The translations under genes and the position numbers were made by a program. A DNA stretch of 64,000 bases from positions 157,884 through 221,883 of the forward strand of contig CAYRUB010000001.1 of assembly GCA_964427405.1 (NCBI GenBank), read 5' to 3'. Source of the DNA: an uncultured Planctomycetales bacterium (GTDB lineage Bacteria; Omnitrophota; Gorgyraeia; Gygaellales; Profunditerraquicolaceae). Positions 4,991-39,679 of this stretch are shown here, one piece after another; position 1 is the first letter of the stretch; each line of letters starts with the position of its first letter. Below the pieces are notes generated by a model. That model was not told where the DNA came from and did not search any database. It saw only the letters and a list, made by a program, of their open reading frames with translations.

Positions 4991-5136
4991 ATTACCCCCA
5001 AGCACTTAAAGCTCACGGCGGGCGGTGGCCTACGAGGCGCCTTTTTCAACAACCCTCTCGAAGGCTACCGCACGCCAGTCCCAATCAAAATCCACCAAAC
5101 CACCCAACCAACAAAACCCTTTAATCAGGGCGGGGC
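4991..5136. repeat. 146-bp perfect inverted repeat, left copy (IR-L)
   Basis: Base-for-base reverse complement of 39534-39679. About 55% GC in a ~40% GC context. Ends 19 bp from the JAB gene stop. Confidence 0.9.
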
Positions 5137-5155
5137 GAATTTAGCTAAACTATAC

Positions 5156-5962
5156 TTAGCTTCCGGCTGGTATTTGCAGGCGTCCTTTCTCTTCCGGGTA
5201 ATTCTTGACGTATTTTGCTATTTTTTCGCAGGAAGAACATATATCAGCTCCATTGCAGACTTCGCAAAAAGGAAGCACTCCCTGGATATTTAAGCCAGCA
5301 GTTTGCTTGCAGGTCTTACATTTGAAAGTTTCACACGCCTGACAAGCCAAATACGGCATACCCATGTGAGGACAATTTTCACAATCAGCTGTTTGGCAAA
5401 ATTCACAGGGATTTTCCTCATCTTCAAATTGTGAAGATGCCTCCGGCAATAGCTCTCTTGTTCTTTCGCTTATCTTTGAAAGATCAATCCCGGGCAGTTC
5501 AATTAATTGAAGCTGAATTTTTATATAGCCAAAACCATTACAGGGGAGTTTTATCCTTTTCGTGGCAATGCTGCCTTTTGCATTAGCGATGACGATGCTA
5601 TAAGTATAGAGATTTCTGGCATGGGCGTCGTCTTGCGATGAATGGAACGCCCCCATATCATGGTGCGAATGGATTATCCCGTCTCCTCCTAATTCCTCTT
5701 TGAATTCGCAGTCAACTGAACCTACTTCCTGCTTTGGGATCTTGAAGCTGGTTATGGTGTTATCTTTCACCCAGAATACCGCGCCCCACTCCTTATCCCC
5801 CATGCGCTGGCTGATATAAGTCCATTGACTCCAGATACTCCAGGGTATATTTAGGGTTTCTTTATGGTCATGGTCGCTGCAAAAGCCGCATTCACCGTAA
5901 TTCTTTATCTTTACATCTAAAATATTGCTTCTCTTTTCTGTAGCTTGCTCTAAAGTAAACAT
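5156..5962 (-). CDS. JAB/JAMM (MPN+) metallopeptidase with C-terminal multi-CxxC zinc ribbons
   Basis: HSHHDMGAFHSSQDD matches the JAMM motif HxHx7Sx2D exactly. The tail carries more than 6 CxxC pairs (CEFC, CENC, CQAC, CKTC, CEVC, CSSC). Confidence 0.8.
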   Translation of the reverse strand: MFTLEQATEKRSNILDVKIKNYGECGFCSDHDHKETLNIPWSIWSQWTYISQRMGDKEWGAVFWVKDNTITSFKIPKQEVGSVDCEFKEELGGDGIIHSHHDMGAFHSSQDDAHARNLYTYSIVIANAKGSIATKRIKLPCNGFGYIKIQLQLIELPGIDLSKISERTRELLPEASSQFEDEENPCEFCQTADCENCPHMGMPYLACQACETFKCKTCKQTAGLNIQGVLPFCEVCNGADICSSCEKIAKYVKNYPEEKGRLQIPAGS

Positions 5963-5963
5963 T

Positions 5964-6890
5964 TTATTTCCCTCCTTTCGCTTTTAGCCATTTTTTAAGG
6001 GCTTCCAACAGTTTTGAATCGGTGATTTCTCCTGTTTCAATCTCACAAATTATCCAGTCATATTCATTATTCTTTGCTTTTTCTTTTATATCTTTTATCT
6101 CATCATCGCTGTAATGTTCATCACAATCAGGGCAGTATCCGTAATCAGAGCCGTCAGGATCAATCCTTGAGCAGTCTTCACAGTAACCATAACTGTCAGG
6201 TATGTGTTCTTCGATGTTATCCAGGATGTTTCCTTCGCCTTCGTTTCTTGCGTCATCTAGGATTTTGGGGCAGATATGAGTTGAGTGCTGGATATGAAGT
6301 TTTCCCAGATCATCCATAAGGCAAAGTTCCTTGTATGCCCTTGAGGATATTCCTGCCGCAGCTGCAAGCACTGCCGGTATTACCCAGGAAGGCGTTACTG
6401 TATAACCCTGTTCTTCTTCTGCATCCTTCAAGGAAAGCGGGAATGTCTTTGAGACATTCAAGATTGTACCGTCATAGCCTATTCTCTGGTAGTTAAGATC
6501 ATTCTTCTTGCAGAAAGCACATATTATCTGCTGGCTTTTTAAATTATCCGTGCAGCAGAATATGTCGCCTCGCAAAATCTGGCAGTCTATTGGCTTTTCA
6601 ATACGTGAATCCTGAATCTCAATCCTTATTCCTTTTCTCACCTGGCAGATGAGTTCTTTCAAGGCTTCCGCTTTCTTTTTGCCGACAGCTTTTTCTTCTA
6701 AGAGAAGCCTGTTCAAGTTGGATACTTCAACTATGTCAGAATCAATTAAAATCAACTCTTCTACTCCTGACATAGCAAGAAGAAGCGCAGTCCAGAAGCC
6801 TGTCCCGCCACAACCGACAATTGAGGCGATTTGCGGAATATTTAAACCTTCTACTAAGTTCTGTCTTTCGTAAATAGCAAGTTCTGGCAT
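5964..6890 (-). CDS. ThiF/MoeB-type E1-like adenylyltransferase
   Basis: IVGCGGTGFWTALLLAMSGVEELILIDSDIVEVSNLNRL is the Rossmann/adenylation motif. C-terminal CEDC...CPDC zinc site. No rhodanese domain. Confidence 0.85.
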   Translation of the reverse strand: MPELAIYERQNLVEGLNIPQIASIVGCGGTGFWTALLLAMSGVEELILIDSDIVEVSNLNRLLLEEKAVGKKKAEALKELICQVRKGIRIEIQDSRIEKPIDCQILRGDIFCCTDNLKSQQIICAFCKKNDLNYQRIGYDGTILNVSKTFPLSLKDAEEEQGYTVTPSWVIPAVLAAAAGISSRAYKELCLMDDLGKLHIQHSTHICPKILDDARNEGEGNILDNIEEHIPDSYGYCEDCSRIDPDGSDYGYCPDCDEHYSDDEIKDIKEKAKNNEYDWIICEIETGEITDSKLLEALKKWLKAKGGK

Positions 6891-6902
6891 ATTTCTTCTC
6901 TC

Positions 6903-7499
6903 CTATATGATTGACTCAATTAAACCCTCATCGCTTAATTCTTTGAATTTGCACAACACATCTTTGTCTTTATTTGACAAAATGTTCCAAAGAGTTGAGT
7001 ATGTCTTAGGCAGGATCACAGTACCCAAAGATTCAAGGTTTATAACCCGGAACGACTTGATTATTTTTAGACAGGCTTCCTTTAAAAGCCCTAAGGATTC
7101 AGGATTAAGGTATTGGATTTCACCGGTGCAGATGGTGTGCCCCTTATCGGTCAATCCAAGATAGTGAAAACCTATCTCCGGTTCTGATACAAAAGCTATA
7201 AAGCAGCCTCTCTGGTCATAGATGCCGTAAATCTTAAAGGGATAGTATTTGATAGGCGTCTTTAGAAAATAGGTTTTATCCTTATAATAAAGCTTGTCTA
7301 TAAGCAGGAGGCCAGAATAGCCCTCTATAAGCATATCGTCTTCCTTTATCATGCAGCTATAGCCTCCGGTAAAGGGAACCGTAAAGATGCCTTCCTTCAG
7401 GCCTTGGACAAATTCCCGCCAAGAGGTATCAATTTTTTCGATAAGGGTTGATTTCTTTTTAGCTTTAACGATCAATTCTGTATCCATCATTGCTTTCAA
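6903..7499 (-). CDS. putative E2-like (UBC-fold) protein
   Basis: 198 aa between the Ubl and E1 genes. HYLGLTDKGHTICTGE resembles the E2 H-x-N...G-x-I-C active-site region. AAAGGAG RBS. The assignment rests on motif and position only. Confidence 0.35.
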   Translation of the reverse strand: MKAMMDTELIVKAKKKSTLIEKIDTSWREFVQGLKEGIFTVPFTGGYSCMIKEDDMLIEGYSGLLLIDKLYYKDKTYFLKTPIKYYPFKIYGIYDQRGCFIAFVSEPEIGFHYLGLTDKGHTICTGEIQYLNPESLGLLKEACLKIIKSFRVINLESLGTVILPKTYSTLWNILSNKDKDVLCKFKELSDEGLIESII

Positions 7500-7560
7500 G
7501 CTCCTTTAAGCTTTAAGAGAGGGAGAAAAAGTTTCTCTCCCTCTCTTTTTAGCTTTTTTT

Positions 7561-7797
7561 CTAGCCGCCTGCTTTGACGTATCTTTCCACTTCGATATCG
7601 TGGCCGTCAAAGGTCGCAGGCAGGTTGTCGGTAGAGGTAACCTCTTCGCCGTCTACCAAGATGGTAAAGGAGTCAATGCCTTTTTCCTGCAAGAGGCGGG
7701 TTAAGGTGTCCTTTACGGCATCGCCCTTTTTTACCTCGAGCTCTTCTCCTGCTATTGTTATCTTTGTCTTTTCGTTTTTCAGTTCGTTTAAGTTCAT
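7561..7797 (-). CDS. ThiS/MoaD-like ubiquitin-like beta-grasp protein ending in Gly-Gly
   Basis: 78 aa. ...ILVDGEEV...FDGHDIEVERYVKAGG* has the typical ThiS/Ubl core and a C-terminal diglycine immediately before the stop. Confidence 0.7.
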   Translation of the reverse strand: MNLNELKNEKTKITIAGEELEVKKGDAVKDTLTRLLQEKGIDSFTILVDGEEVTSTDNLPATFDGHDIEVERYVKAGG

Positions 7798-7855
7798 TTT
7801 GTTCTGTCTTTCTCCCCGTATAGCCGATAGGACAGCTTTTAATTTTTAAATTCTT

Positions 7856-8158
7856 TTAAGCCTGGTAGGCTGCAAGAACCACTTCTTGCAATTCATTTTT
7901 TGCCTCAGGCGTTAAGAATTGGACGGTATCGTAATACTTACCGTCGCCAGCTAAATGGGATGGCATAGCTGCGAACAGCCCGCCCTCTTTTTTAGCCATG
8001 ACCCTGATGCCTTTGATTAAAACCGCGTCAGCGACTTTAATGTCAACAAAGGCCTTCAGGGAGCTTTCGTCTTTTTCGACTTTATAAACTCTGGCCACTT
8101 CAATCATGGTTTTCACCTCCTTTCGATTTGTTTTTTGTTTTGTTTTTACTTGGCTCAT
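7856..8158 (-). CDS. SpoVG-like protein, first gene behind leader copy 2 (starts MSQVK)
   Basis: IRVMAKKEGGLFAAMPSHLAGDGKYYDTVQF resembles the SpoVG core (IRVIDG..GLFVAMPS..DG..RDI..P). The N-terminal 17 aa are an extension that begins with the leader-encoded MSQVK. Confidence 0.55.
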   Translation of the reverse strand: MSQVKTKQKTNRKEVKTMIEVARVYKVEKDESSLKAFVDIKVADAVLIKGIRVMAKKEGGLFAAMPSHLAGDGKYYDTVQFLTPEAKNELQEVVLAAYQA

Positions 8159-8525
8159 GTAAGCCTCCTTTCTTTTGACGCCGGAAATTAAAACCCAAGA
8201 ATATGAAGTATTTTTCCAGGCAGCCCAGAAAAATACGGTCTTTTGTCAAGAAAACATGGAATGCCCGAAGGCAAACGACGCAAGGAGTGAACCTTCCTGG
8301 GAGTCCTTTGGAAAAATTGAGACTCCCCTATAGGGGCAGAATGCTTCTGATAGCTAAAAAGCCTTTCCGAGGCAGACCACGAAAAGGCTTTTTAGATAGA
8401 GATGAATCTTCCCAAAGGATTTTCTTGAAAAAAGTCAGGATTGGGTTATTGTAGGCGGATAAAAAGAAAGGAGGATTACGTGACGACAAGAGAAAACAAA
8501 AGACAAGGAAGGAAGTAACTGATTG
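8159..8525 (-). promoter_or_regulatory. structured ~370-nt leader element, copy 2 (novel)
   Basis: Hairpins at 8208-8236 (GTATTTTTC/GAAAAATAC) and 8356-8393 (AAAAAGCCTTT/AAAGGCTTTTT) carry the conserved TGGNNTGCCT loops. The 5' segment 8462-8474 AAAAAGAAAGGAGG region is complementary to the RBS region 8164-8182. A CCCC-TATA-GGGG hairpin plus T-run lies mid-element. Confidence 0.5.
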
Positions 8526-8712: not shown

Positions 8713-9366
8713 TTATCCTTGAAATTGACTCTGCTTGTACTCAGACTGGAAATATATTAATGGGACTATCCGCATAGCTTCAAGGATCTTTGGTCCGTGG
8801 CATTTTTTAAGCCTTTTTCCCGAATTGCATGGGCATATCTTATCTCGACTATATTCTCCAGAGGCTAATATTTTAAGAAATTTCTGAGCAGCAGTAAAAT
8901 CATTGGTATTAAAGAACTCACAATAAAATTCTATAACCCCTCGTCCATAATGTGAGCGCTCACCAAACGGCATATGGCCTGTTTTTTTATTGAAACAAAA
9001 GGAGAAAAGAAACGGAATCACTAAAAACTCAACAAATCCAATAAGGGTTTTACATTTACTGAATTTTATCCAATTATCTACTGGCGTGCCTAAACATAAT
9101 GTATCGTTTGTGTAATGATGAAAATCGCTCGGTATCCTTCCCCCCATTTCTTTAACTGAGGGCATCAGATCTGGGTAGCTAGACGGGATCGCGATGAATA
9201 ACTCAAAACCATCTTGGATTCTTACTTTTTCGAATTCGGAAGAAAAACCCAGGAAACCAAAAATATAATAATTATCATCGATATGCTTAAGGCTCAAACC
9301 TGTATATTTCTCATGAAGTTCTTGAAATTGTTTCTGAATAATATCGTCATAACCAATACTCGCCAT
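8713..9366 (-). CDS. E2-like protein with C-terminal SEC-C zinc motif (CBASS Cap2-short-like)
   Basis: Start at MASIGYDD (9366), overlapping the CD-NTase stop by about 20 nt. FHHYTNDTLCLG resembles the UBC HPN...C active site. The C-terminal CPCNSGKRLKKCHG is a SEC-C motif. Confidence 0.45.
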   Translation of the reverse strand: MASIGYDDIIQKQFQELHEKYTGLSLKHIDDNYYIFGFLGFSSEFEKVRIQDGFELFIAIPSSYPDLMPSVKEMGGRIPSDFHHYTNDTLCLGTPVDNWIKFSKCKTLIGFVEFLVIPFLFSFCFNKKTGHMPFGERSHYGRGVIEFYCEFFNTNDFTAAQKFLKILASGEYSRDKICPCNSGKRLKKCHGPKILEAMRIVPLIYFQSEYKQSQFQG

Positions 9367-10546
9367 TGCTGCTCCATGGTTTCGAAGGACTAATTTTAAC
9401 CTCAGGGTAAGATTGCGCAGAAGGCGTTTTCTGGTTACTAGTTCTATAGCCACATTTCTCGAGGACCTTCCCCATGGTTTTAATACCGAATATAACACCC
9501 AGGTACTCAATCATATCCTTAGTTGATGTTTTTGTTAGAGCCTCCTGCAAGTCTTTTTTAATCTTTTTCAACCAATCATAAAAGCTTTTCTCAAGCACAG
9601 GATCATCTAACCATTTATCTGCAAAGTTTTCATCTGGTTCAACAGGATTTCTTATAACTGTTTTAGTCCCATTTTTTTCGATATGTTTATCCATATTATC
9701 TACTATACGTATTAATGCATCAGCTAACCCTAATTCATTTTGATACGCGTGCGCCGCCAAGGTGGTTATAATCATCGAAGTCGGCTTGATCTTAAAATCT
9801 TTTTCGAACATAATATCACGGTGCCGCTTAAGAAGCTGAATAGTTTTCTGTAAGGGAGTTCTAACTTTGTAAACAGGAACGGCTTCTATTGAAGCATATA
9901 AGCGCTTTTCAAGAAGAGATATAGCCCCTTTCTCAAAAATGGTTCTCATTCTAAACTTGAACCATTCTGCATACCCCTTAGGATTAGTTTTTAACCAATT
10001 ATCGTCAATACGATCATAATTACCCAATGTATTATCGGTAAGACAAATACTTGTCTGCAGTAAATTCTCCCTTATTCCTGATTCAAGCAAATGTTTTTTG
10101 TAGGGCACATCTTGCTCTGGAATAGAAGCTAAAAAATCCATATGGAAATGAACATCATCTTCATATTCAATTCTCCAGCAACGTCTTTTATTCTCGGGCT
10201 TACTCTTCATATTTTTAGCAAGAGAGTAATCAGTTAACTCCTTACCGATTTTTTCCTTTAAGTCTTTTTGTGAAATCTCATTTTTAAGATAATTTAAACA
10301 ACATACCAAGTCAATATCATATCTGTCTTCTTCTGATGCAGGTCTAACTGTAGTTCCCAAAAGAAATGAACCTTGCGTATATATTTCAGGATTTCGATCT
10401 TTTAATGATGTACTCTCCTGTAACCACTTTGTTACCGATTCATATCGAAGTCTCGCTTCTTCAAATTGAGAATCGGAAATCTTTAAGGAATCCGCATATT
10501 TCTCTAATACATCATCCAATAATGTCATGCGATTATCTTGCATCAT
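9347..10546 (-). CDS. cGAS/DncV-like nucleotidyltransferase (CD-NTase) of a CBASS system
   Basis: QGSFLLGTTVRPASEEDRYDIDLV gives the GS...hDhD nucleotidyltransferase active site. A third acidic residue lies at HMDF. 399 aa. Confidence 0.8.
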   Translation of the reverse strand: MMQDNRMTLLDDVLEKYADSLKISDSQFEEARLRYESVTKWLQESTSLKDRNPEIYTQGSFLLGTTVRPASEEDRYDIDLVCCLNYLKNEISQKDLKEKIGKELTDYSLAKNMKSKPENKRRCWRIEYEDDVHFHMDFLASIPEQDVPYKKHLLESGIRENLLQTSICLTDNTLGNYDRIDDNWLKTNPKGYAEWFKFRMRTIFEKGAISLLEKRLYASIEAVPVYKVRTPLQKTIQLLKRHRDIMFEKDFKIKPTSMIITTLAAHAYQNELGLADALIRIVDNMDKHIEKNGTKTVIRNPVEPDENFADKWLDDPVLEKSFYDWLKKIKKDLQEALTKTSTKDMIEYLGVIFGIKTMGKVLEKCGYRTSNQKTPSAQSYPEVKISPSKPWSSNGEYWL

Positions 10547-10547
10547 T

Positions 10548-11483
10548 CTAACCTCCTGTGTTATAATCCAAGAATTCTTGGATTTTTTGTGAATTATTTG
10601 TAAAATCTTTTTCTGCTAAAAAGACTAAGTTATTGTACTCATTAGGATCATCTAACTTTAAAGGTTTAGCTGATTTAAAATTAATTCTTAATACCTGATT
10701 TTCCTCAAATAAAAGCTTAAGCATGTTGGTAGTTGTTTGAGACTGCAAGCTAAGAAGCATACCAATAAATTTTTGTCGACCCCACCTTGCCAAGAATCCC
10801 CATCCTAAGAACTTTTTCCACCATCGGTCTGACTGCGAATAGAAATTTTCCCCTTCGCCTGTGCCAATTGACAAAATCATTAGATTATTTATATTCTGAC
10901 CAAGACGACGCTTAGCTTCAATAGCCGCAATAAGAGCCGGATTATTTGCCCATAATCCTCCATCTGCTAAAAGAAAATTATCCATATAATAAGGATCAAA
11001 ATAGGTAGGGGCGGAACAAGAAGCCAATACTGCTTTATAGACTAGTCTATTAGGATCACGAGAAAAATTTTTATCGTACGAAGATTTAAACACATGAACG
11101 CAGCCATTCCCGATATCAGATGCAGGCAAAACTAAAGGTATGTCAATTTGGCCTAGCTTTCGATCATCACCATAGAGATTTCTTAAGATGTTTTCTAAAT
11201 CCTTATTATCATATCTGCTCACGAATAATCCAAACCAATGAAGAAATCGCTTCTTGAAGATCCGTTGACCATATTCCTTATAAAAATCTAATACTTTACT
11301 CGCAGTAAAGTTACAAGCTAATGATGCCGCGATGATTGCTCCTGTACTAGTTCCGGCTATTAGATTAAAACTTTTTAACCAATCAACACTATATTCTTCC
11401 TCAATGCGTTTTAATATATAAGCTGCATAAACACCACGATAACCACCACCGTCGATTGCTAAAATTTTAAATATTTTATCCAT
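10548..11483 (-). CDS. patatin-like phospholipase (CapV-type CBASS effector)
   Basis: DGGGYRG oxyanion motif, GTSTG nucleophile elbow and DGG catalytic Asp. Sits directly upstream of, and 2 nt from, the CD-NTase. Confidence 0.85.
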   Translation of the reverse strand: MDKIFKILAIDGGGYRGVYAAYILKRIEEEYSVDWLKSFNLIAGTSTGAIIAASLACNFTASKVLDFYKEYGQRIFKKRFLHWFGLFVSRYDNKDLENILRNLYGDDRKLGQIDIPLVLPASDIGNGCVHVFKSSYDKNFSRDPNRLVYKAVLASCSAPTYFDPYYMDNFLLADGGLWANNPALIAAIEAKRRLGQNINNLMILSIGTGEGENFYSQSDRWWKKFLGWGFLARWGRQKFIGMLLSLQSQTTTNMLKLLFEENQVLRINFKSAKPLKLDDPNEYNNLVFLAEKDFTNNSQKIQEFLDYNTGG

Positions 11484-11558
11484 AGATAGTCTTTATTAAT
11501 TTTTTAATTGTTTCTTCTGTCCTCTTCAGGTGTCTTTTCGGTATCACCAATAGGTTGT

Positions 11559-12551
11559 TTATTCGTACCTTATTTCTGTCCCCCGCAAGGTACCGTCCGT
11601 TGTTATAATAATATGATCATCTCCTGAGGTTTTTTCAGAAGATTTATTTTGGTCGTCTCTGTCTGTCCTATAAATATTTACACCCCTGCTTTCATATCTC
11701 TTGATTACAGTTTTGTCAGGAAGCAATGTTCCTGAGAATTTCTTATTGCCGGCACATATTATTCCATACCTAGGTGAAACAGCATCAATAAAAGCATTCG
11801 TGCTTGCACTTTCACTTCCGTAATGACCTGCCTTGAGAAATGTGCTTTTTAATTTGCCATCATATTCTTCAACCATTTCCTTCTCTACGAATTTTAGGAC
11901 ATTGGGGGAATCTTTCCTTAGCTTACCTTCAGAATCACCAACAAGCAAAAAGCTTACCTCGCCATATCTAAGCCATATCACTATTGATGAATTATTGGGC
12001 TTATCTGCATGCCCATCTGAATGTAATACCCTAACTTCAAATTCAGAACCCCAGTTAAGACTATCCCCTTCTTTCTTTATTAAGGTACCCACTAATGGCT
12101 TGTAGTAGTGACAATCTTTCTCTTGCTGAGCTAACTTACAAAAAGTCTTTTTGTATAATCTTGATTTTCCATTATAACCGGGATCAAGAATTGCCTTTAT
12201 TTGATACGCTTGAATAACAGGTATTAACCCTCCAACATGATCGGCATCACAATGAGTCATAATCATCAAATCTATAGGCTTGTTTTTCTTTATCCCATGA
12301 CTTTCAAGATAAGGGATAATTACTCTTTTGCCCTCTATTCCTTCGCCTCCGTCTATTAGGATTATCTCACCTTCATATTTCCCATTGCCTTTTATGCCGT
12401 CATCGGGAGTTTGAATCAAAATACAGTCACCATGGCCTACGTCTATAAACGTTACCTTAAGGGGAGTCTGGGCGTAGAGGAAAGAAGAACATAGCAGCGT
12501 GAAATAAAAAACAAAAATCTTAATTTTATGCTTTTTTATAAATATAACCAT
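11559..12551 (-). CDS. secreted metallo-beta-lactamase-fold hydrolase (ComEC C-terminal-domain-like)
   Basis: Signal peptide, DVGHGDCILI and MTHCDADHVGG MBL motifs. Confidence 0.65.
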   Translation of the reverse strand: MVIFIKKHKIKIFVFYFTLLCSSFLYAQTPLKVTFIDVGHGDCILIQTPDDGIKGNGKYEGEIILIDGGEGIEGKRVIIPYLESHGIKKNKPIDLMIMTHCDADHVGGLIPVIQAYQIKAILDPGYNGKSRLYKKTFCKLAQQEKDCHYYKPLVGTLIKKEGDSLNWGSEFEVRVLHSDGHADKPNNSSIVIWLRYGEVSFLLVGDSEGKLRKDSPNVLKFVEKEMVEEYDGKLKSTFLKAGHYGSESASTNAFIDAVSPRYGIICAGNKKFSGTLLPDKTVIKRYESRGVNIYRTDRDDQNKSSEKTSGDDHIIITTDGTLRGTEIRYE

Positions 12552-13377
12552 AGTTACATTTTGGCTTTTCTAATGGAAAACCCATTAATATGCTCACAAT
12601 CTTGAGTATCGTTCTAGGATCAAGCGTTATGCCGTCCTTTCCTGTGTGTGTAGCTCCCCCTATCTCAAGGATTTCCACCTTGCTTTTATAAAGATCAGAG
12701 TCTAAGTCTTTTTTGCTTAGTCTTGCGCTCTTCATAACCGCCTGATCCACCGTACCCATGAAACAATAAAGCTCTTTAACTCTATCCAAGAGTTTCTTTC
12801 TTATTTCAGGCTGATTTGCATACTTAATAGGCATCTGGTCAGGATCCAGGTTCACGCATTGCATTGCATGATGCGGCGAATAATCTTTGAATATAGGACC
12901 TATTTCTCCTAGCTCGCTGCCTTGATGCGGTGTTGCGACAGTAATCAAGCTGTTGATTTTCAAAAGAGGAGGAGTATCATCAATTATGGCCGCAACAGAA
13001 TCTAAACCGCCCATGCTGTGCCCTATCAAATCAAACTCCTTGCTCTTTCCTATCTTAGAGAAGATTTTACTTCGAAGAACAGGTCCGAAATCAAGGAAAC
13101 TCTTGCACCCCCCAGATTCCTCTTCAGAGAAAGTTATGTATTCGGCAGAATCGCAGTTTGTGAATATCTCTGAAAACCTTTCTTTTGCAGAAATCCCCAA
13201 TTTCTTGTCAGTGGTAGTCCACCAAGTGTTATTCTCATCAGTCCAGCCCGGTACAAAGAAAACGGGTCTTTTCAAAGTTAATTTTTCCTGCGTAAACTGC
13301 GTCAGTCTATTTAAAGCGTTCTGTTTTTGCTTTTTTCTTTCTTCTATCATTTCTTGTACTGGACCTGTGGTAGACAT
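12526..13377 (-). CDS. alpha/beta-hydrolase lipase/esterase
   Basis: VFFVPGW...GHSMGG nucleophile elbow. 283 aa. Confidence 0.6.
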   Translation of the reverse strand: MSTTGPVQEMIEERKKQKQNALNRLTQFTQEKLTLKRPVFFVPGWTDENNTWWTTTDKKLGISAKERFSEIFTNCDSAEYITFSEEESGGCKSFLDFGPVLRSKIFSKIGKSKEFDLIGHSMGGLDSVAAIIDDTPPLLKINSLITVATPHQGSELGEIGPIFKDYSPHHAMQCVNLDPDQMPIKYANQPEIRKKLLDRVKELYCFMGTVDQAVMKSARLSKKDLDSDLYKSKVEILEIGGATHTGKDGITLDPRTILKIVSILMGFPLEKPKCNYGYIYKKA

Positions 13378-13434
13378 GGAAACTCCTTTCTTTTGTTATG
13401 AAAACAACTGTTCTCAAAACAAATTGTTAAAGCT

Positions 13435-13677
13435 TTAATGCTTTTTATCTCTTGGTGGACAAGAATCGTTACCTGGAGGAACCGTATCGCTGTCTCGAAT
13501 CGGCCCCTTTGGGCTATGTATTTTTACTTCACCTCCACCACTGTTCGCCGACATCTTTTTCGCTGCTTTCTCAGCCTCTGCCTGCGTATCATAATAACCG
13601 GCAACACGATCGGACTTTTCTCGCTTTGCACGCCAGTCACCAGAATCCTTGTCTTTTGAAACGTGATAATTTGCCAT
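13435..13677 (-). CDS. DUF2188-like small protein
   Basis: MANYHVSKDKDSGDWRAKREKSDRVAGYYDTQAEAEKAAKKM has the DUF2188 pattern. Confidence 0.45.
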   Translation of the reverse strand: MANYHVSKDKDSGDWRAKREKSDRVAGYYDTQAEAEKAAKKMSANSGGGEVKIHSPKGPIRDSDTVPPGNDSCPPRDKKH

Positions 13678-13681
13678 TTAT

Positions 13682-14317: not shown

Positions 14318-14353
14318 ACATACAAGTGTATACTACCGTATGTATTTTGTCAA
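14316..14353 (-). promoter_or_regulatory. lexA promoter with overlapping inverted repeat (candidate SOS operator), leaderless start
   Basis: Minus strand TTGACA(14353-14348)-17 nt-TACACT(14330-14325), then ATG 7 nt later. ATACATAC-N14-GTATGTAT inverted repeat (14316-14345) overlaps the -10 and the start codon. Confidence 0.4.
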
Positions 14354-32594: not shown

Positions 32595-32992
32595 TTTTTA
32601 TCTATTTCCTTATATGGTAGTATTAAAGGGATCTTCGTTTCATTCTTGCTTTGGCTATCGATAAACCAGCTTGATTCTTTTACCATGATATAAATCCAGT
32701 GTCCTGCCACCAAGACTTCAGGAGCGGATTTTGATTTATGCGCAGGAATCCAGACAAGGCGCACATCAGCTGGTTCAACCACAGGCACATAGGGCTTTAC
32801 ATAGCCGAACGCCTGTTTTATTTTTAAGTTGTCCTTTATATAATTAACTGAGTCAGCTCTTCCGTTTGAAACAGCTTGCAGGTATACGTCCATCACCTTA
32901 TTTGGGTTTTCCTTAACTAACCCTTTAGACGCAGCGCAGCCGCTAGTCATCAAAAGAGCCAAAATTACTGCTTGTAACTTCAAGGCCTTCAA
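32591..32992 (-). CDS. TraV-like outer-membrane lipoprotein
   Basis: Likely TTG start at 32992 with an AAGGAG RBS, giving MKALKLQAVILALLMTSGC lipoprotein signal. The ORF-track start at 33040 would overlap TraB by about 100 nt. Confidence 0.4.
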   Translation of the reverse strand: MKALKLQAVILALLMTSGCAASKGLVKENPNKVMDVYLQAVSNGRADSVNYIKDNLKIKQAFGYVKPYVPVVEPADVRLVWIPAHKSKSAPEVLVAGHWIYIMVKESSWFIDSQSKNETKIPLILPYKEIDKK

Positions 32993-34175
32993 TTTGCACT
33001 CCTTTCTGGATAACCAAAACCGCTTTTTTCCCCGCTTCAATCTTTACCGCGGGGATCATGGCTTCTAATTGTTTCTGGTAATAGCTGGACATTCCTTGCG
33101 CGCTGTTAGCCAGGCCTGAGAACATGGAATAACGTCCGGTGTTTCCGGTAACATTTTTAGAGGTCTGCCCGTAGGCGCCGACAACGCTGGAAGTTTCTGA
33201 TTCGGAAAGCGCTCCAGCGCCTCCAGCCAGGAATCCGGACAGGAAACTTAAACTCAATTGCTTTCCTGTATTGTAGATAAGCTCACCTGGTATGCCCAAA
33301 TGCCCGTCATCATCAGCCAGATACCCTAAATTTGATTCATGTTCAAAGACTTTACCATCCGGTAAAACTGTAGAAAAACTAACTACCTGGATAACCGCCC
33401 TCTTTGAGACCACGTCTCCTACTGCCTTACCAATGGCAAAGGCACCTTTTAAAGGGACTCTGGTATTATTCGGGCCGTAAAAGGCCTCATCCACGCTGAT
33501 TAATACCGGCAGGGGATTGCTTTCATTGGCAGGGGCATAAACGCCGGTAAGAAGAGTGCATTTGACAAAGCTGCCCAAAGGAAGATAAACGTACCTCTTC
33601 CCGGGAGCTTTTTCCTCGTTTCTTATTTCGCCGACCTTAGCCGTCTCTAAGTTAACCGATTGCTTGAGAGCTTGCGGCGTAGATACCGAGCCTATCAATG
33701 ACTCTTCCAAGGATCCGGCGCTTTGCCCCCGCTCAATGCTTTTTTTCGATAAAGGATTTTGCTTGTTGGCATCAGACATCCTCTTATCAAGATCGATAAC
33801 AATCTTGCTGACCTGGGTCTGGTTCTTGCGCAGGTCCTGGGAACTTTTTTCCACGGAAGCCATACGCTCATTTAAGGAATCGAACTTTGAAGAAATGTCG
33901 TAATACTGTTTTTCAATGCGGTTAACATAGGACTTGGTATCCACAGAGCCGGTTAAGACGCCCACGTCCTTATCCTGCCCGGATGAGGCGGCTTGTTTTC
34001 CTGCTGCCAGATCAAGGCTTTTCCTGATTTCTTTGGTTTCCTTGCTTCCTGCGAATAATAGGAACGCAAGTGCACCCATAAGAGTCAAAATAACTACAGC
34101 GGTAAATTTAGGATTATTGCGCGCTGCCTGCGGAAGCTTATTAAACCCGGGTATTTTATCTAGAGATATTTTCAT
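32943..34175 (-). CDS. traB: TraB/VirB10-family protein
   Basis: N-terminal TM, Ser/Lys-rich linker, C-terminal TrbI/VirB10-like domain (GxVxG..A). Position fits the F order. Confidence 0.65.
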   Translation of the reverse strand: MKISLDKIPGFNKLPQAARNNPKFTAVVILTLMGALAFLLFAGSKETKEIRKSLDLAAGKQAASSGQDKDVGVLTGSVDTKSYVNRIEKQYYDISSKFDSLNERMASVEKSSQDLRKNQTQVSKIVIDLDKRMSDANKQNPLSKKSIERGQSAGSLEESLIGSVSTPQALKQSVNLETAKVGEIRNEEKAPGKRYVYLPLGSFVKCTLLTGVYAPANESNPLPVLISVDEAFYGPNNTRVPLKGAFAIGKAVGDVVSKRAVIQVVSFSTVLPDGKVFEHESNLGYLADDDGHLGIPGELIYNTGKQLSLSFLSGFLAGGAGALSESETSSVVGAYGQTSKNVTGNTGRYSMFSGLANSAQGMSSYYQKQLEAMIPAVKIEAGKKAVLVIQKGVQIEGLEVTSSNFGSFDD

Positions 34176-34891
34176 TGGTTCAGTCCTTCTACAACCATAT
34201 AAGCTTTTGTCATATAGACGGAAGTTTTCTTTTTAATATCGTGCGGCCGCGGTTCAAGTATTTGAGTATCGATGCTGATGGTTAATAACCCAGGAAGTTC
34301 GATGTGCTCAATTGGCACAACCAGAGGCTTCCAGGTCAAGTTCTCAAAAGTCAAACAGAAGGCTTTTACGTTATTGGAAAATTCATAAACCTCATCTATA
34401 CTGATGCGTAATTTAGCGTTATTAAATATCTCCCTATGATTCAGTGTTGAGTTAACTGCGCCAGGCGGCTGCCTACCGGAAAGAAGGGCTTTCATCAGCT
34501 CAACCGTGTTTAGCGCATTCGCCTCTTCTTCGTTTGTCTGCTGATGATGATTATCAATCTTTATGCGGCTGGCTGCCCGGGCTTCATCCATGATCAGATG
34601 CAGGCAAAAAGATTCATTATCCTGAGTAACCACATAAACTTTAGAATCAAGGCTTTCCCGGGCCAGGAGAAACATCCTGTTTCCCAAAGTCTCAATCTGT
34701 AAGGCCTCGCTTGAAATGCTTTTTGTAATATTGGCGATCTTTTCCGGAAATTCCGCTTCCGTGATCATCCCGGTCTTTAGCCTTACAGTAATCTCAGAAT
34801 TATAATCCGAGGCTCTTGAAATATTTACTTGTCCTATAAATAACAACCCGGAAATAATCAATAAAATAGAAATTTTCCTGAATATCGTCAT
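34172..34891 (-). CDS. traK: TraK/VirB9-like protein
   Basis: Signal peptide, 239 aa. Assigned by order. Confidence 0.5.
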   Translation of the reverse strand: MTIFRKISILLIISGLLFIGQVNISRASDYNSEITVRLKTGMITEAEFPEKIANITKSISSEALQIETLGNRMFLLARESLDSKVYVVTQDNESFCLHLIMDEARAASRIKIDNHHQQTNEEEANALNTVELMKALLSGRQPPGAVNSTLNHREIFNNAKLRISIDEVYEFSNNVKAFCLTFENLTWKPLVVPIEHIELPGLLTISIDTQILEPRPHDIKKKTSVYMTKAYMVVEGLNQ

Positions 34892-35505
34892 TTTATCTCT
34901 ACCTCTTCCTGTTTTACCCCGGCGATCACCAAGCCGTAGGGGTTGGTTTCAATAGGCGGGATTCTTTGCAGGGTCACCGTATAGCAAAGAATTCGGTCAT
35001 CCAGCTTTTCCTTGCCCATAAAAATAATCTTTTCTCCTGTTAAAGTTACTTTAAAATCAGCGCTTGAATCTTCAAGCACCGGGTCTTTGCTTAAAGAGAA
35101 TAATGACGAGATATTGTCGCGCTCAACACGGGATATTTCATCCTCTAAGGAAGCTTTTGTCCTGGAAAGAAGTCCCGGAGCCATATAGCGCATTGCTCTT
35201 TGATAGGTGTCTTTTACTGTTTGGGGTGTGAAATTATTGCGGTTTAGAAGCCAGTTTGAGGCAAAACCACAGACTACGGCTTTATCTATATGATTGGGGT
35301 AGGCGACACCTGCCTCCTGCGCGCTTGGAATGTAATAAATAGCCTGGGGTTTTGTGGATACCCTGAATAAGGTAAACAGCAACCCTATGCAAAAAGCAAC
35401 TACGGCAAAAAGCGTGATTCCCAGAAATGCGGAAGTCTTTTCTGCGTGAGCCCACTTCTCAATAAAGCCTGTGCGTTTTGTTTTTTCTGTTTTTAGTTCG
35501 CTCAT
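34888..35505 (-). CDS. traE: TraE/VirB8-like bitopic protein
   Basis: Single TM then periplasmic domain. Assigned by order. Confidence 0.5.
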   Translation of the reverse strand: MSELKTEKTKRTGFIEKWAHAEKTSAFLGITLFAVVAFCIGLLFTLFRVSTKPQAIYYIPSAQEAGVAYPNHIDKAVVCGFASNWLLNRNNFTPQTVKDTYQRAMRYMAPGLLSRTKASLEDEISRVERDNISSLFSLSKDPVLEDSSADFKVTLTGEKIIFMGKEKLDDRILCYTVTLQRIPPIETNPYGLVIAGVKQEEVEIK

Positions 35506-35685
35506 GGCAAATAAAAAAAGGCTGGCCTTCCGAATGTTGATTCGGAAAACCAGCCCAGTTTTTCTCTGGTCTATTGTTCAGACCGAGGATACTGTGACTG
35601 AAAATTTACATTAATTAATTCTTGACTAACTTATACACCCTACTTTTTAATTTGTCAAGTTTATTTTTTTAGTCTTTTTTTATTC

Positions 35686-35877
35686 TTACTTAATTACAGA
35701 CCAAACCAAAGAAATCACCCATCCCAAAACTGTCCAGCCTAAAAACAGGTTTAATAAAAATATCGCCAGCATATTTTTATGCTGCCTTAAAAAAGCGATC
35801 AATGTCGGCAGGAAATAAAAAGCAAAAAATAATACTGCCAACAATAATCCCAGCACCGTGAAATTCTGCATCTGCAT
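35686..35877 (-). CDS. small two-TM membrane protein
   Basis: 63 aa, hydrophobic. Confidence 0.3.
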   Translation of the reverse strand: MQMQNFTVLGLLLAVLFFAFYFLPTLIAFLRQHKNMLAIFLLNLFLGWTVLGWVISLVWSVIK

Positions 35878-35879
35878 AT

Positions 35880-36167
35880 CTAACCCTCTCTCCTAAAAAC
35901 CGAATACCTGTTTATTTTCTTTGGCGGATCGATCAAGCCTTTTATTCTTACGCCATGTTTGTAAAACAAATGCGTAAGGTATCCTTGAGGCTTACCTTGC
36001 TTTATTAACCTTAAGAAGATCCAACCACCAAAGAAAACCATACCTGCGTAAAAAGTATCAAAGAATAGTATCATCGAGCCGCAGGCTAAAGCCAGTATAC
36101 CCACATCTTCAGGCTCGAGCCCAAAAAGAAGCAGCGGTTTATCAATGGTGCGCAGGCATTTTCTCAT
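35880..36167 (-). CDS. traL: TraL/VirB3-like protein
   Basis: ...GKPQGYLTHLFYKHG resembles the TraL family (G.Y..HL.Y). Confidence 0.5.
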   Translation of the reverse strand: MRKCLRTIDKPLLLFGLEPEDVGILALACGSMILFFDTFYAGMVFFGGWIFLRLIKQGKPQGYLTHLFYKHGVRIKGLIDPPKKINRYSVFRREG

Positions 36168-36490
36168 TATTGCTTAAACAACCCTTCCAGTATCTTGGGT
36201 ATGAACATCAATATCATGAACCCAAAGCCGCAGGCAATTGCAACACCCTGCTTGCCGTTTAAAAGCGCGATTACGCCGCCAATCAAAAGTACCGCTCCCA
36301 GGATCTTTGATACCGGCCCTGTGAGAATATTGATGATAAATGTGGCAAAGTCGCTCACCACCTGCTGCTCCTGGGTTGTGCTTATCTGGGCAAAGACATA
36401 GGGCGCAGCCAATATGGATAACCCAAGCACGAGGCACAGGACCGCAAGAGTCCTAACCACAAACTTCTTCCTGTTGATTTGCTTAAACAT
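36167..36490 (-). CDS. conjugative pilin (TraA/TrbC/VirB2-like)
   Basis: Signal peptide plus two hydrophobic helices. First gene of the tra block. Confidence 0.5.
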   Translation of the reverse strand: MFKQINRKKFVVRTLAVLCLVLGLSILAAPYVFAQISTTQEQQVVSDFATFIINILTGPVSKILGAVLLIGGVIALLNGKQGVAIACGFGFMILMFIPKILEGLFKQ

Positions 36491-36493
36491 TAC

Positions 36494-38761
36494 TCATCCC
36501 TCCTTTGGTTTATTGTCATATTCAAACGGGCTTGCGATAAGCCTGTCTTTTACCTTTTTATCAAATAAAAACTCGTGATTTGCGATTACCGTGAGTTTTT
36601 CCCTTAAGAAAATAACACTCTTTGAAAACGGCAGCCTTAAAAACACATTCTCTGAAATGTAATTCTTAACCGCAGTACGGATATTTCCCTGGGCGGATCT
36701 TAAACCGTCGAGCTTGACTCCTGCTTTATCATTGCTTATATTATCCACCTGAAGTACAGTTTTATCCTGATAGGTGGTCTGTCCAGTTTTATCAGACCAG
36801 AACCTTGCGTCAAAAGGATCCTCCTGCATAAAAATTACTTTGGTTGCGGTATTGGTAAAAATCGCATTCTCAAATGCTTTCGATACATTGGATAGGTTTC
36901 CCCGCGACTGATTGGACAGCACAAGACAAAAATTAGCGCTCCTTACTTTAGAGATTACATCCACGAAGTGAGAACAAGCTAAATTCTGGAACTCATCGAT
37001 AAAGATAAAAAACGGTGGATCGGTTTCCTTACGGAATACAGCCTGTGACTTAAGGTCAATAATAAGCATCCTACCTATTGCTTCAGCCAAACGCGTATTC
37101 ACCTGGCTCTTTAGGGCAAAGAATGCCACATCGCCGTTTTTGATTACTTTGGCTAAATCCAGTTCAGCGCGGTTTATCACATCAATACCGGCAATCCAGG
37201 AGACTGCTGCCAAGAGCCCCTTAACTTCCTGTGTACTTACATCCGTCCTTTCTAAGAAGGCGGGATTCTCCAAAGCCTCTTTGACCGAAAGGAAATTTAT
37301 CTCCTTGTTTTCCTGAATTTTTTCCTTTAATAATCCGATGAAGGCCATTGCCTGCACATTAGAGTAAAAACCAGCCGGGCCCTGGTAAATAAGCTCTAAG
37401 GCAGTCATAATCCTGTCGACCTTGGAATGAATATCGCCTGATGAAAGCGGATTATACCCAATTGAGGGTTCATTAGGATCAATGCTGAAATAATAAAATT
37501 TCTTGCCCGCTTGCCTCGCTCTCTCCTGAACGTACTTCTTAAAAACCTCGTCTCCCTTAAAATCTATAAAGCAGCAACCTCTGCCTTTTTCTATAGCCTG
37601 CCTGCTTAAAGGAAGTATCACTAGGGAAGTTTTTCCGCCTCCTGTGGAGCCTAATACGTGCAGATGGCGGTTAAGGATATTTTCTTCTACAACAACATCC
37701 TGCTTATCATCTGAGACAGCCAAAAAATATTTGTCCGTCTTTGCGTACTGATTCAGTTTTTTGTTGATATCGAAGTGGACTTTTTTAAATTCAACCGTCT
37801 CGATGGAAAGCTCTTTTCTTTTTTGCGTTTCCTTATCAACTTTTAAGAAGTCCTCTAGTTCCCGCCTCTTGCGCGGCATTACGTGTTTGATTAAATAAAT
37901 AATGCCAACTGCAGTAAAACCGATAACCGACAAGCCAAAAGCTATAATCAAAAATAACCTTCCCTCTTTCATAATAAAACCGTTCCAGAAACTCCAAAGG
38001 ATCACCTGCCAGCCGTCATTACTAAATGCCAGGTTTATGTCATGGTAGCCAATCCTGCCAAACCAATAGGCAAACACCCAAAACAAGTAATAAAACCAAA
38101 GCCAAAAACTCCTTGTTGCCATAACCACAAAGAAAACACCTATCCCTATTAACCCCAAAACGTCATAAGGAAGACCGTTATCTTTAAAGATATTTCCCAT
38201 GGCTCTTGAGACGAGCACCGTGTCAGAGTAGAGCCAGGGGTATTTCTTTTCGAGTCTCTCAAGAAATAAATAAGGCTCCAAAGCCAGAGCATCTTTAGTC
38301 CTGCCTGATTTCTTAAGAAGATCGCTAAGCTCTCTTACTGACAAGCTTCCCAATCTTTTCTTAGGGTTCTTAAGTTCGTAAGCTATGGCCCGTGAATATT
38401 CTCCGGTCATGGCAAAAGTCTTTGGCAGAGCGATATCGCTTCCTGAAGGCGAAAAGTCAAAATTCCACGTTCCGGGCACCTCAAAATATCCGGATACCTT
38501 AAAATAGGTTGAATCCGGATCAGGATTAGCAGCCTCATGTGGCGGCACAACCATAACCAAAGCCTTGCTGCCAGAGATATCTTCTAAGGACGAGCCTAAG
38601 AGACTGATCTTCATAACCACAGGGATATTGTCAAAGGGTCCCAAAATGACACACTTTCTGCCGTAATTAAAACCTACATACCAGCCGAATCCTATGTAGA
38701 AAAGCGGAATCAGTATTAATAACCTTATAAACCTACTCTTTAAACTAAGCGGTTTGTCCAT
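36494..38761 (-). CDS. traD: type IV coupling protein (TraD/VirD4 family)
   Basis: N-terminal TM helices, HLHVLGSTGGGKTS Walker A, FIFIDEFQ Walker B. Confidence 0.8.
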   Translation of the reverse strand: MDKPLSLKSRFIRLLILIPLFYIGFGWYVGFNYGRKCVILGPFDNIPVVMKISLLGSSLEDISGSKALVMVVPPHEAANPDPDSTYFKVSGYFEVPGTWNFDFSPSGSDIALPKTFAMTGEYSRAIAYELKNPKKRLGSLSVRELSDLLKKSGRTKDALALEPYLFLERLEKKYPWLYSDTVLVSRAMGNIFKDNGLPYDVLGLIGIGVFFVVMATRSFWLWFYYLFWVFAYWFGRIGYHDINLAFSNDGWQVILWSFWNGFIMKEGRLFLIIAFGLSVIGFTAVGIIYLIKHVMPRKRRELEDFLKVDKETQKRKELSIETVEFKKVHFDINKKLNQYAKTDKYFLAVSDDKQDVVVEENILNRHLHVLGSTGGGKTSLVILPLSRQAIEKGRGCCFIDFKGDEVFKKYVQERARQAGKKFYYFSIDPNEPSIGYNPLSSGDIHSKVDRIMTALELIYQGPAGFYSNVQAMAFIGLLKEKIQENKEINFLSVKEALENPAFLERTDVSTQEVKGLLAAVSWIAGIDVINRAELDLAKVIKNGDVAFFALKSQVNTRLAEAIGRMLIIDLKSQAVFRKETDPPFFIFIDEFQNLACSHFVDVISKVRSANFCLVLSNQSRGNLSNVSKAFENAIFTNTATKVIFMQEDPFDARFWSDKTGQTTYQDKTVLQVDNISNDKAGVKLDGLRSAQGNIRTAVKNYISENVFLRLPFSKSVIFLREKLTVIANHEFLFDKKVKDRLIASPFEYDNKPKEG

Positions 38762-39518
38762 GAGTTTCTATTCCTTCTTTTAGTAACCTTATCGCTTCTT
38801 CAACGTGTATCATCTTGCCCTGATAAAAACACATACCCAGCTCAAGCATTCCCAAATCAGCCAGGATAAGAAACCTTAAGCAGAACTCCTGCGCGATATT
38901 ATAAAACCTGGTTCTTAAGCCTTCATAATTGAACCTGCTTGAAGCCACAACCATGAGGCAATTGTACTTGGAGATCTTCTCGATATCGTAGCGGTACTTC
39001 TTAACAAATGTTTTTAGGATTCCCAGGGTTTTATAGCGAGTTTCCACTTCCAAAGCCACATTAAGGCCGTTCGCTAAAGTTATCAGGCCATCGGGGATCT
39101 TCTCTCCTGGACGTTTTCCTCTTCTCAGATCCCATTCACATACCCATTCTTTGATATTGAGATGGCTATTAAGCAGCATAAAAGCCTCTACCATATTGTT
39201 GTGATGGATAAAGGTATTTAAACCGGCGTGGGACTTCTCAAAATAGTAATGCTCAACCATGGCTTGATCGGAAATCATTTCCCTGCCTTTATGGGTTAAA
39301 TAGTATATTTTTGTCTTGAATAAAGGCTCGTAATAAGCATCTATAAATCCTTCGCTAAGCGAGTACTGTATAAGCCAGCGGGTAAACGACAGATTCATTA
39401 TCAACTGAATAAACATTTCCAGCTGCTTCCTTGTCGCATATCTGAAAGTATAAATAAATATTAATAATGCCTTGATTCTGCGTGCCTGTTCTTCCTTAGT
39501 CAGTCTTCCTCTTTTCAT
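38745..39518 (-). CDS. replication-relaxation (Replic_Relax)-like wHTH protein
   Basis: 257 aa. N-terminal wHTH-like region (TRKQLEMF). Sits at the position where relaxosome genes are expected. Confidence 0.4.
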   Translation of the reverse strand: MKRGRLTKEEQARRIKALLIFIYTFRYATRKQLEMFIQLIMNLSFTRWLIQYSLSEGFIDAYYEPLFKTKIYYLTHKGREMISDQAMVEHYYFEKSHAGLNTFIHHNNMVEAFMLLNSHLNIKEWVCEWDLRRGKRPGEKIPDGLITLANGLNVALEVETRYKTLGILKTFVKKYRYDIEKISKYNCLMVVASSRFNYEGLRTRFYNIAQEFCLRFLILADLGMLELGMCFYQGKMIHVEEAIRLLKEGIETHGQTA

Positions 39519-39533
39519 AACAATGCCTTTCTA

Positions 39534-39679
39534 GCCCCGCCCTGATTAAAGGGTTTTGTTGGTTGGGTGGTTTGGTGGATTTTGATTGGGACTGGCGTGC
39601 GGTAGCCTTCGAGAGGGTTGTTGAAAAAGGCGCCTCGTAGGCCACCGCCCGCCGTGAGCTTTAAGTGCTTGGGGGTAAT
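39534..39679. repeat. 146-bp perfect inverted repeat, right copy (IR-R)
   Basis: Exact reverse complement of 4991-5136. Lies 15 bp upstream of the start codon of the Replic_Relax-like gene at 39518, so the repeat is directly upstream of the tra operon. Confidence 0.9.

Follow-up and report, generated by a model that had tools for sequence, protein, structure and literature searches.

The subject of this report is a 147-nt sequence unit found twice, in inverted orientation, in a 64,000-nt stretch of DNA (hereafter, the window) from an uncultured bacterium deposited as a member of the Planctomycetales and assigned by the Genome Taxonomy Database to the phylum Omnitrophota (assembly GCA_964427405.1, contig CAYRUB010000001.1, positions 157,884 to 221,883). 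The two copies sit within an integrated conjugative element and bracket its relaxase gene, nearly all of its F-type conjugation genes and its cargo. As a rule, a conjugative element is described as having a single origin of transfer (oriT). We propose, with a probability of roughly 0.6, that the 147-bp unit is an oriT-type cis-acting region of this F-type/MOB_C element that has been duplicated in inverted orientation and is homogenised by recombination. The proposal draws on the position of the unit, its internal structure and the family of the neighbouring relaxase.

A perfect inverted repeat in two contexts

The window contains a single long inverted repeat, identified by a repeat search and checked directly, the arms of which (copies A and B in Table 1) are 100% complementary and separated by 34,397 nt. 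A perfect match of 147 nt in 64 kb is far beyond chance. An earlier note on this DNA, made from the sequence alone, had described a perfect repeat of 146 bp; the repeat is real and perfect, with one base more at its outer end. Complementarity breaks off abruptly at both ends, and no third copy of the repeat core is present in the window when up to three mismatches are allowed. The unit is GC-rich relative to its surroundings, as had been noted (55.8% in the repeat compared with 41.5% in the window), and one of its strands is C-rich.

Copy A lies directly upstream of a gene for a MOB_C-type relaxase, which is the place at which an oriT is expected and where the earlier note had put a probable promoter and/or oriT, whilst copy B lies between a JAB gene (5156-5962, minus strand) and a small open reading frame (ORF), o64. 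The gaps that had been given, 15 nt to the relaxase ATG and 19 nt to the JAB stop, are both correct. The relaxase family in question, PF13814, corresponds to the MobC or MOB_C relaxase superfamily (PMC5357655), members of which are related to the PD-(D/E)XK nucleases (PMC12857230). The source names of the relaxase homologues point to the Omnitrophota.

Many contigs of metagenome-assembled genomes (MAGs) end inside the repeat, a sign that it confounds short-read assembly, and the copies might accordingly be an assembly artefact or else members of an ordinary dispersed family akin to miniature inverted-repeat transposable elements (MITEs). Both explanations had been raised before and both are extremely unlikely. 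Three Logan contigs built at k=31 from run SRR13007709 (L001, L002 and L003) are identical to the window; entering the repeat from three different flanks, each of them breaks off after exactly 30 nt (k-1) of it. This marks the repeat as a true branching node with two contexts in a set of reads that is independent, and the layout is found again in unrelated assemblies. As such a node, the repeat prevents the orientation of the bracketed segment from being fixed from the short-read graph. As for a dispersed family, a scan of 185,579 species genomes with a degenerate 27-nt core pattern returned 38 stretches, with no more than two in any element and all of them in the two contexts just described, and a 1.19-Mb contig (CAWDSS010000010.1) holds exactly two copies. 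Nearly all of the 38 stretches come from MAGs named Omnitrophota, with a few under other bin names (Atribacterota, Planctomycetia, Parcubacteria, Proteobacteria and 'uncultured archaeon').

Conservation of the pair and concerted evolution

A parallel scan of metagenomes yielded at least 120 stretches. Among the matches listed from the genome and metagenome collections, the unit is seen solely in Omnitrophota-type conjugative elements, and every occurrence is in context A (small-ORF flank, repeat, relaxase), in context B (o64-side flank, repeat, JAB 3' end) or in a subfamily equivalent of one of these. Copy A is upstream of the relaxase gene in all relatives, even where relaxase identity is as low as 42-52%. 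The order TraG_N, small ORF, relaxase, type IV coupling protein (T4CP) is found in L004, L006, L007, L008 and L012, and the order JAB, repeat, o64, o97 through to DUF6876 in L015, L021, L030, L042, L129 and others, with the JAB/o64 context of copy B also present in L071; in L035 and L048 a FUR gene follows DUF6876, as it does in the window. The copies are usually paired in inverted orientation 27-35 kb apart (Table 1). In the subfamily represented by CAWDSS and MNVP, copy B is instead located between genes for a 563-aa large serine recombinase and an HTH_17 (Xis-like) protein, showing that the pair is kept with different integration modules and in a different permutation.

The earlier note had read the perfect identity of the copies as the mark of either a very recent event or ongoing gene conversion. 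The first of these does not hold, divergent relatives having conserved the inverted pair, and duplication as a recent one-off event was rejected on the same ground. We suggest that the two-copy inverted layout is ancestral to the element family rather than a recent accident. Gene conversion, on the other hand, agrees well with what is seen when the two copies of each genome are compared. The tract shared by the copies measures 147 nt in the window with no mismatch, 141 nt in JACQXK (one mismatch), 145 nt in JBEKHW, whose pair is also on contig Ga0187886 (one), 113 nt in JBAZIT (three), 125 nt in CAWDSS (two), and 164 and 167 nt in the first and second pairs of CAYSSS (none in either). Where genome pairings are known, the nearest A copy of each B copy is that of its own genome, at an identity of 0.96-0.98, whereas identity averaged over all A-B pairs is 0.78. 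Near-identity within genomes against about 78% between them is the pattern of concerted evolution, and the perfect identity in the window is thus better understood as the steady state of homogenisation than as a sign of recent duplication.

Two MAGs carry more than one pair or locus. CAKKRH01 has two identical A-context loci on different contigs (L014 and L034) and CAYSSS01 has four copies of two sequence types that pair by type (L023, L032, L038 and L043), indicating that some genomes harbour two such elements and that homogenisation is element-specific.

Internal structure of the unit

Alignment with relatives reveals four invariant blocks of DNA within the unit, TTACCCCCAAGCACTTAAAG, AACAACCCTCTCGAAGGCTACCGCACGC, CCAATCAAAAT and CAGGGCGGGGC. 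Its most prominent structural feature is a conserved imperfect hairpin with the right arm CGAAGGCTACCGC; folding z-scores are -3.6 to -6.3 for the unit, and -3.6 to -4.4 for the hairpin at 5017-5076. Pairing was assessed by folding each sequence separately, anchored on the fixed right arm. Across 105 unique homologues, at least ten right-arm positions are paired with the left arm in 98%, and the mean energy is -16.5 kcal/mol compared with -7.1 kcal/mol after shuffling of the left arm. In the same set, position 13 of the hairpin is an A-T pair in 85 and a C-G pair in 17, and positions 8-9 show a compensatory mix of GC, CG, AT and TA. When 108 hairpin sequences were aligned with MAFFT and analysed with RNAalifold, no stem was recovered, since bulges shift the register of the left arm.

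After the hairpin comes a C-rich tail with three 8-nt tandem direct repeats of CCACCAAA, candidate binding repeats for the relaxase; between subfamilies this tail is the least conserved part of the unit. The arrangement recalls the MOB_C oriT of pAD1, in which a large inverted repeat is accompanied by direct repeats bound by TraX 70-120 bp from nic (PMC12857230). A blastn search with the repeat against PLSDB plasmids and INPHARED phages gave no match.

It has also to be considered whether the unit is, rather than a site of DNA processing, a regulatory cassette, transcriptional or acting as RNA (an operator, promoter, leader or terminator), that is shared by two transcription units and co-regulates them. 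Copy A falls within the relaxase operon's 5' region; in CAWDSS/MNVP, copy B lies directly upstream of the gene for the serine recombinase, shares its sense and is followed by a consensus promoter; and the reverse strand carries a terminator-like CCCT-loop-AGGG with a T-run. Against this, copy B of the window type, followed in its sense direction, meets the convergent JAB gene at its 3' end and so has no gene to lead. Rfam searches at gathering and E-value thresholds found nothing meaningful, the sole row being SpF51, whose 19.8 bits fall short of the gathering score of 50. The earlier note had proposed that the right copy probably carries the promoter of the tra operon and/or an oriT; the promoter part of this gains no support, a simple promoter scan showing no sigma-70-type promoter inside the repeat. 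Since regulation alone would also leave unexplained why the two copies must be inverted relative to each other and homogenised in all subfamilies, we regard a regulatory cassette as doubtful and an oriT-type site as the better account.

The repeat had further been called non-coding, on the basis that a 90-aa ORF running through copy A is not preserved in copy B. That step was too quick, given that a co-linear ORF is common in close relatives, but the conclusion agrees with a codon-position test for the repeat itself. Variable sites at codon positions 1, 2 and 3 number 11, 11 and 10 inside the repeat, compared with 10, 8 and 17 in the N-terminal part of the ORF outside it (weakly coding-like) and 16, 8 and 41 in the first 70 codons of the relaxase gene. 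The lack of codon periodicity inside the repeat points to constraint at the level of nucleic acid. In distant subfamilies the ORF is short, absent or fused to the relaxase, yet the DNA core of the unit is kept. The N-terminal region of the ORF, just outside copy A (39690-39787, minus strand), contains the direct repeats GCTAATTATTTT and AAATTAATT, each present twice, and at the corresponding place the L101 subfamily has three copies of TAATGCACA; an accessory protein or a regulator might bind at these repeats.

Inversion of the bracketed segment

The earlier note had suggested that the 34-kb unit is invertible, and we compiled a census of junctions at loci with flanks assignable on both sides, among the matches listed. 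Standard junctions make up 59 of these (44 with A flanks on both sides and 15 with B flanks on both sides) and recombinant junctions five, the window having the majority configuration. Four of the recombinants combine a B flank on the left with an A flank on the right, so that o64 diverges from the relaxase gene (L036, the 5-kb L081, L147 and L164), and the fifth has the opposite arrangement, the small-ORF flank being joined to the JAB end (L115). These two junction types are the reciprocal products expected of recombination between the copies, and indicate that the segment inverts. The relaxase flank of L081 is 98.2% identical to that of L096, a contig of standard configuration. The recombinant contigs belong to different lineages and to populations other than that of the window, and the suggestion of invertibility is thus upheld by the reciprocal junctions in five contigs of related assemblies and not by any mixture within a population.

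Inverted repeats that bracket a module, with both configurations occurring among relatives, might also be the crossover sites of a programmed switch working by dedicated site-specific inversion, in the manner of an inverton or shufflon, and turning the conjugation module's expression on and off. A large serine recombinase is encoded beside copy B in one subfamily, and read-through from TraG_N into the relaxase operon would be possible in the standard orientation and lost after inversion. We nonetheless consider a switch of this kind unlikely: window-type elements have no recognisable recombinase gene, the shared 113-167 nt far exceeds typical recombinase crossover sites, and the standard configuration dominates by 59 to 5 with no within-population mixture found.

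A model for two putative inverted origins

On the oriT interpretation, copy A would be where an oriT canonically lies, just upstream of the operon for the relaxase and the coupling protein, and copy B would be its inverted duplicate at the far end of the conjugation and cargo module, after the E2/ThiF/JAB operon. Recombination or gene conversion would keep the two copies identical within each element, and the same recombination would occasionally flip the bracketed 27-35 kb segment. The reaction may be relaxase-catalysed or RecA-dependent; a relaxase route and RecA exchange over 147 bp would each give rise to both homogenisation and inversions. Recombination specific to oriT has been reported for the MOB_C relaxase TraX and for TrwC, NikB and the relaxase of ICEclc (PMC5714925).

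A possible direction of transfer is suggested by two further structures. The ~300-nt leaders of o97 and SpoVG fold as single-stranded DNA into very long imperfect hairpins (Table 1), and hairpins of this type are conserved in L030 (z -9.1) and L015 (z -11.8). The distal arm contains a -35/-10-like pair (TTGCAC-17-TATTTT) on the strand that serves as template for the gene, a design that matches the Frpo/ssi single-strand promoters of plasmid leading regions (PMC11541004), and by structure and position the two leaders look like promoters of this kind. Should they act so, the transferred strand would be the plus strand of the window. Read along the plus strand, copy A displays the classical order, with the tra genes last, followed by direct repeats, hairpin, conserved block and leading region, and in an excised circle both hairpin promoters would fall within the first ~7 kb to enter. 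Taken together, plus-strand transfer and the classical order would make copy A the likely primary origin and copy B an inverted copy inside the leading region, where it might serve as a second origin on the other strand, as a recombination partner or as a pairing partner of copy A in the incoming strand. A partial third copy of the leader-hairpin core is located at 13380-13421.

More speculatively, the inverted origins could form a functional pair for the restriction-endonuclease-like MOB_C relaxase, which would recombine them, with inversion and homogenisation as the outcome, and could also initiate transfer from either, on opposite strands and in opposite directions. We hold this to be possible but improbable. 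Were it correct, the location of the copies 1.7-1.9 kb inside the ends of the integrated element would allow bidirectional export of flanking chromosomal DNA in the manner of Hfr (high frequency of recombination) strains; alternatively, both complementary strands of the element might be delivered, or the copies might pair in the incoming single strand.

A number of points weigh against the proposal that the unit is a duplicated oriT. No recombinase, integrase or excisionase is recognisable among the ORFs of at least 80 aa in the element or among five shorter ORFs that were scanned. That the MOB_C relaxase nicks either copy is something that we infer, and an inverted second oriT has no evident advantage under the classical model. 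The invariance of the right arm CGAAGGCTACCGC is imposed by the search pattern, and covariation in the hairpin can be read at the degenerate positions only. The co-linear ORF that overlaps the relaxase start is open in most close relatives, allowing some coding role for copy A. As regards inversion, no single population or sample was found with both configurations and identical flanks (no pair reached 99% identity), and the recombinant contigs could in part be short-read chimeras formed at the ~150-bp repeat.

Relation to known systems

To our knowledge, the elements known to have dual origins (ICEclc, pAD1 and R6K) carry dissimilar sequences at the two sites. The likeness to ICEclc (oriT1/oriT2), pAD1 (oriT1/oriT2) and R6K would lie in the use of two transfer-origin regions with one relaxase, and the relaxase-dependent recombination reported at oriT for ICEclc and for pAD1 TraX offers a parallel to the unit described here. 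What differs is that the Omnitrophota elements have the same sequence at both places, inverted and homogenised, bracketing the whole conjugation and cargo module in a layout that is family-wide. With the MOB_C origins of pAD1 and pAM373 in particular, the unit has in common the relaxase family (by Pfam) and a large inverted repeat combined with short direct repeats, which in pAD1 lie away from nic. It differs from them in having no sequence similarity to known origins (by blastn, among plasmids and phages), in its host, an uncultivated diderm phylum, in its association with an F-type secretion system and in being known from sequence alone.

Flanking inverted repeats, reciprocal junctions among relatives and homogenised arms are also features of large invertible segments in general. 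In the present case, however, the arms resemble a DNA-processing site rather than insertion sequence (IS) copies or rRNA operons, and the window-type element has no dedicated invertase. The leaders of o97 and SpoVG share with the Frpo/ssi sequences of F-like and IncI plasmids a length of ~300 nt, a position upstream of small operons directed toward a copy of the origin and -35/-10-like hexamers in the distal arm of the hairpin, the assignment here being by structure and position only.

An element family in an uncultivated nanobacterial phylum keeps two inverted, mutually homogenised, origin-like copies around the whole of its transfer machinery, and in nature the 27-35 kb segment that they enclose occurs in either orientation. 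Should the copies function as origins, this would bear on which strand and which genes enter the recipient first, on whether relaxases drive large inversions and on whether integrated elements export neighbouring chromosomal DNA bidirectionally. In practical terms, short-read MAG assemblies of these elements are systematically broken by the repeat and can be mis-oriented by it.

The element and its gene content

Almost all genes in the window are on the minus strand. Chromosomal genes are found to the left of ~3.1 kb (FUR, DUF5320 and NifB-like) and to the right of ~41.2-42.4 kb (GDSL lipase, MscS-like, MBL, YacP, purC, PEPCK, trxB, def, panD, ack, pta and others), and an integrated conjugative element occupies the space between these two blocks. 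In minus-strand order it begins with TraG_N, the 90-aa ORF together with copy A, the Replic_Relax relaxase, T4CP, pilin, TraL, TraE, TraK-like, TraB, TraV and TraC; continues with an R64-like type IV pilus, TraU, TraF, TraH, an IS-like split gene and the cargo; and ends with SpoVG, E2-like, ThiF, JAB, copy B, o64, o97, o67, o46, o72 and DUF6876 (Table 1). The type IV secretion system (T4SS), coupling protein and relaxase form a complete set when TraG_N is counted, a gene that is inside the element and outside the repeat pair; the earlier statement that a complete T4SS falls within the bracket therefore does not stand. An exact-protein look-up of TraG_N returned no record.

The position of TraG_N bears on one further explanation, in which the copies would be the ends either of a 34-kb transposon-like unit, as its terminal inverted repeats, or of an ICE (integrative and conjugative element). 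A perfect inverted repeat around a gene-dense mobile segment that includes an IS-like gene invites such a reading, which had also been put forward in the earlier note. It is, in our judgement, very unlikely. TraG_N, which an F-type T4SS needs, is outside one copy and the o64-to-DUF6876 operon outside the other, and the conserved backbone continues for 1.7-1.9 kb past both copies. In relatives, too, the two outer blocks stay with the element, as far as the FUR and MBL/MscS genes of the chromosome. On their outer sides the copies are flanked by unrelated sequences (AATTATC and AACATAC) that show no target-site duplication, and in L007 the IS-like gene is at another position. The boundaries of the element in the window are at 3077-3150 and 41159-41399, and there is no tRNA gene in the window and hence no tRNA attachment site. 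Relatives occupy different sites: the element is flanked by FUR and MBL/MscS in the window, by a fragment of comM (Mg_chelatase) together with a Y1 transposase in L004 (7029-8364) and by PFOR in L012.

Table 1. Coordinates of the repeat copies, associated structures and genes in the window, and of the repeat in related contigs
Feature	Sequence	Position	Strand	Remarks
Copy A, relaxase-proximal	window	39534..39680	-	minus strand reads TATTACCCCC...GGGCGGGGC; 15 nt short of relaxase ATG
Copy B, inverted duplicate	window	4990..5136	+	between JAB stop (5156) and o64 start (4949)
Conserved imperfect hairpin	window	5017..5076	+	in copy B; mirror 39594-39653 in copy A
Three 8-nt tandem direct repeats	window	5092..5115	+	in copy B; mirror 39555-39578 in copy A; C-rich tail after hairpin
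90-aa ORF	window	39515..39787	-	crosses copy A only; overlaps relaxase start (ATGA)
MOB_C-type relaxase gene (Replic_Relax, PF13814)	window	38745..39518	-	23.8 bits, just below cutoff; many homologues carry PF13814
TraG_N gene, F-type T4SS	window	39788..41158	-	outside repeat pair; first gene at right element end
Conjugation module (T4CP, pilin, TraL, TraE, TraK-like, TraB, TraV, TraC, TraU, TraF, TraH)	window	17532..38761	-	between the copies
R64-like type IV pilus (secretin, ATPase, PilR, PilS/V-like)	window	within 17532..38761	-	part of conjugation module
Variable cargo	window	8713..17414	-	between the copies; SEC-C protein, CD-NTase and patatin (CBASS-like), MBL, hydrolase, LexA-like repressor, AbiEii/AbiEi, split IS-like gene
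CD-NTase gene	window	9347-10546		CBASS-like
Patatin gene	window	10548-11483		CBASS-like
Frpo-like hairpin upstream of SpoVG	window	8159..8470	+ (predicted)	z -6.4; 80-85% paralogue of o97 hairpin
Backbone operon SpoVG, E2-like, ThiF (E1), JAB	window	5156..8158	-	ends at copy B; kept beside copy B in relatives
SpoVG gene	window	7856-8158	-
JAB, ThiF and E2-like genes	window	5156-7499	-
Frpo-like hairpin upstream of o97	window	4337..4640	+ (predicted active strand)	z -10.4
Backbone operon o64 (64 aa), o97, o67, o46, o72, DUF6876	window	3151..4949	-	outside copy B
FUR gene, chromosomal	window	2603-3076		directly after DUF6876
Inverted pair	JACQXK010000009.1	A 124,187; B 151,002		26.8 kb apart
Inverted pair	Ga0187886_1000036	A 137,253; B 172,636		35.4 kb apart
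Inverted pair	CAWDSS010000010.1 (1.19 Mb)	B 234,072; A 240,573		6.5 kb apart
Inverted pair	MNVP01000013.1	B 605; A 20,065		~19.5 kb apart
Distant subfamily on 1.19-Mb contig	L028	248-1939	-	serine recombinase / HTH_17 context
Distant subfamily on 1.19-Mb contig	L028	2187-2423	+	serine recombinase / HTH_17 context
Distant subfamily	L050	573-1393		serine recombinase / HTH_17 context

The genes next to the left copy had been taken as defence cargo. The E2-like, ThiF and JAB genes found there belong instead to the conserved backbone: together with SpoVG they stay beside copy B even in elements, such as L015, in which tblastn with the window proteins shows no CD-NTase or patatin nearby, suggesting that they are not simply Cap2/Cap3 accessories of the genes resembling CBASS (cyclic oligonucleotide-based antiphage signalling system). 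The cargo proper includes, at 13682-15998, a LexA-like S24 repressor gene, an AbiEii toxin gene and, upstream of the latter, a 197-aa ORF without a Pfam match that is assigned as AbiEi by position only. The IS-like split gene (16129-17414) comprises an N-terminal ORF with HTH_28/HTH_23 and a 203-aa ORF without a Pfam match; L007 and L008 have, elsewhere in the element, one ORF of 420 aa that matches part of the 203-aa ORF at 36% identity, and the split gene may represent a transposase family that has no Pfam model.

Two riboswitches are present in the chromosomal part of the window, both on the minus strand: a c-di-GMP-I riboswitch at 56225-56304 (66 bits) and a thiamine pyrophosphate (TPP) riboswitch at 57355-57468 (58 bits), the latter upstream of a Thi4 gene.

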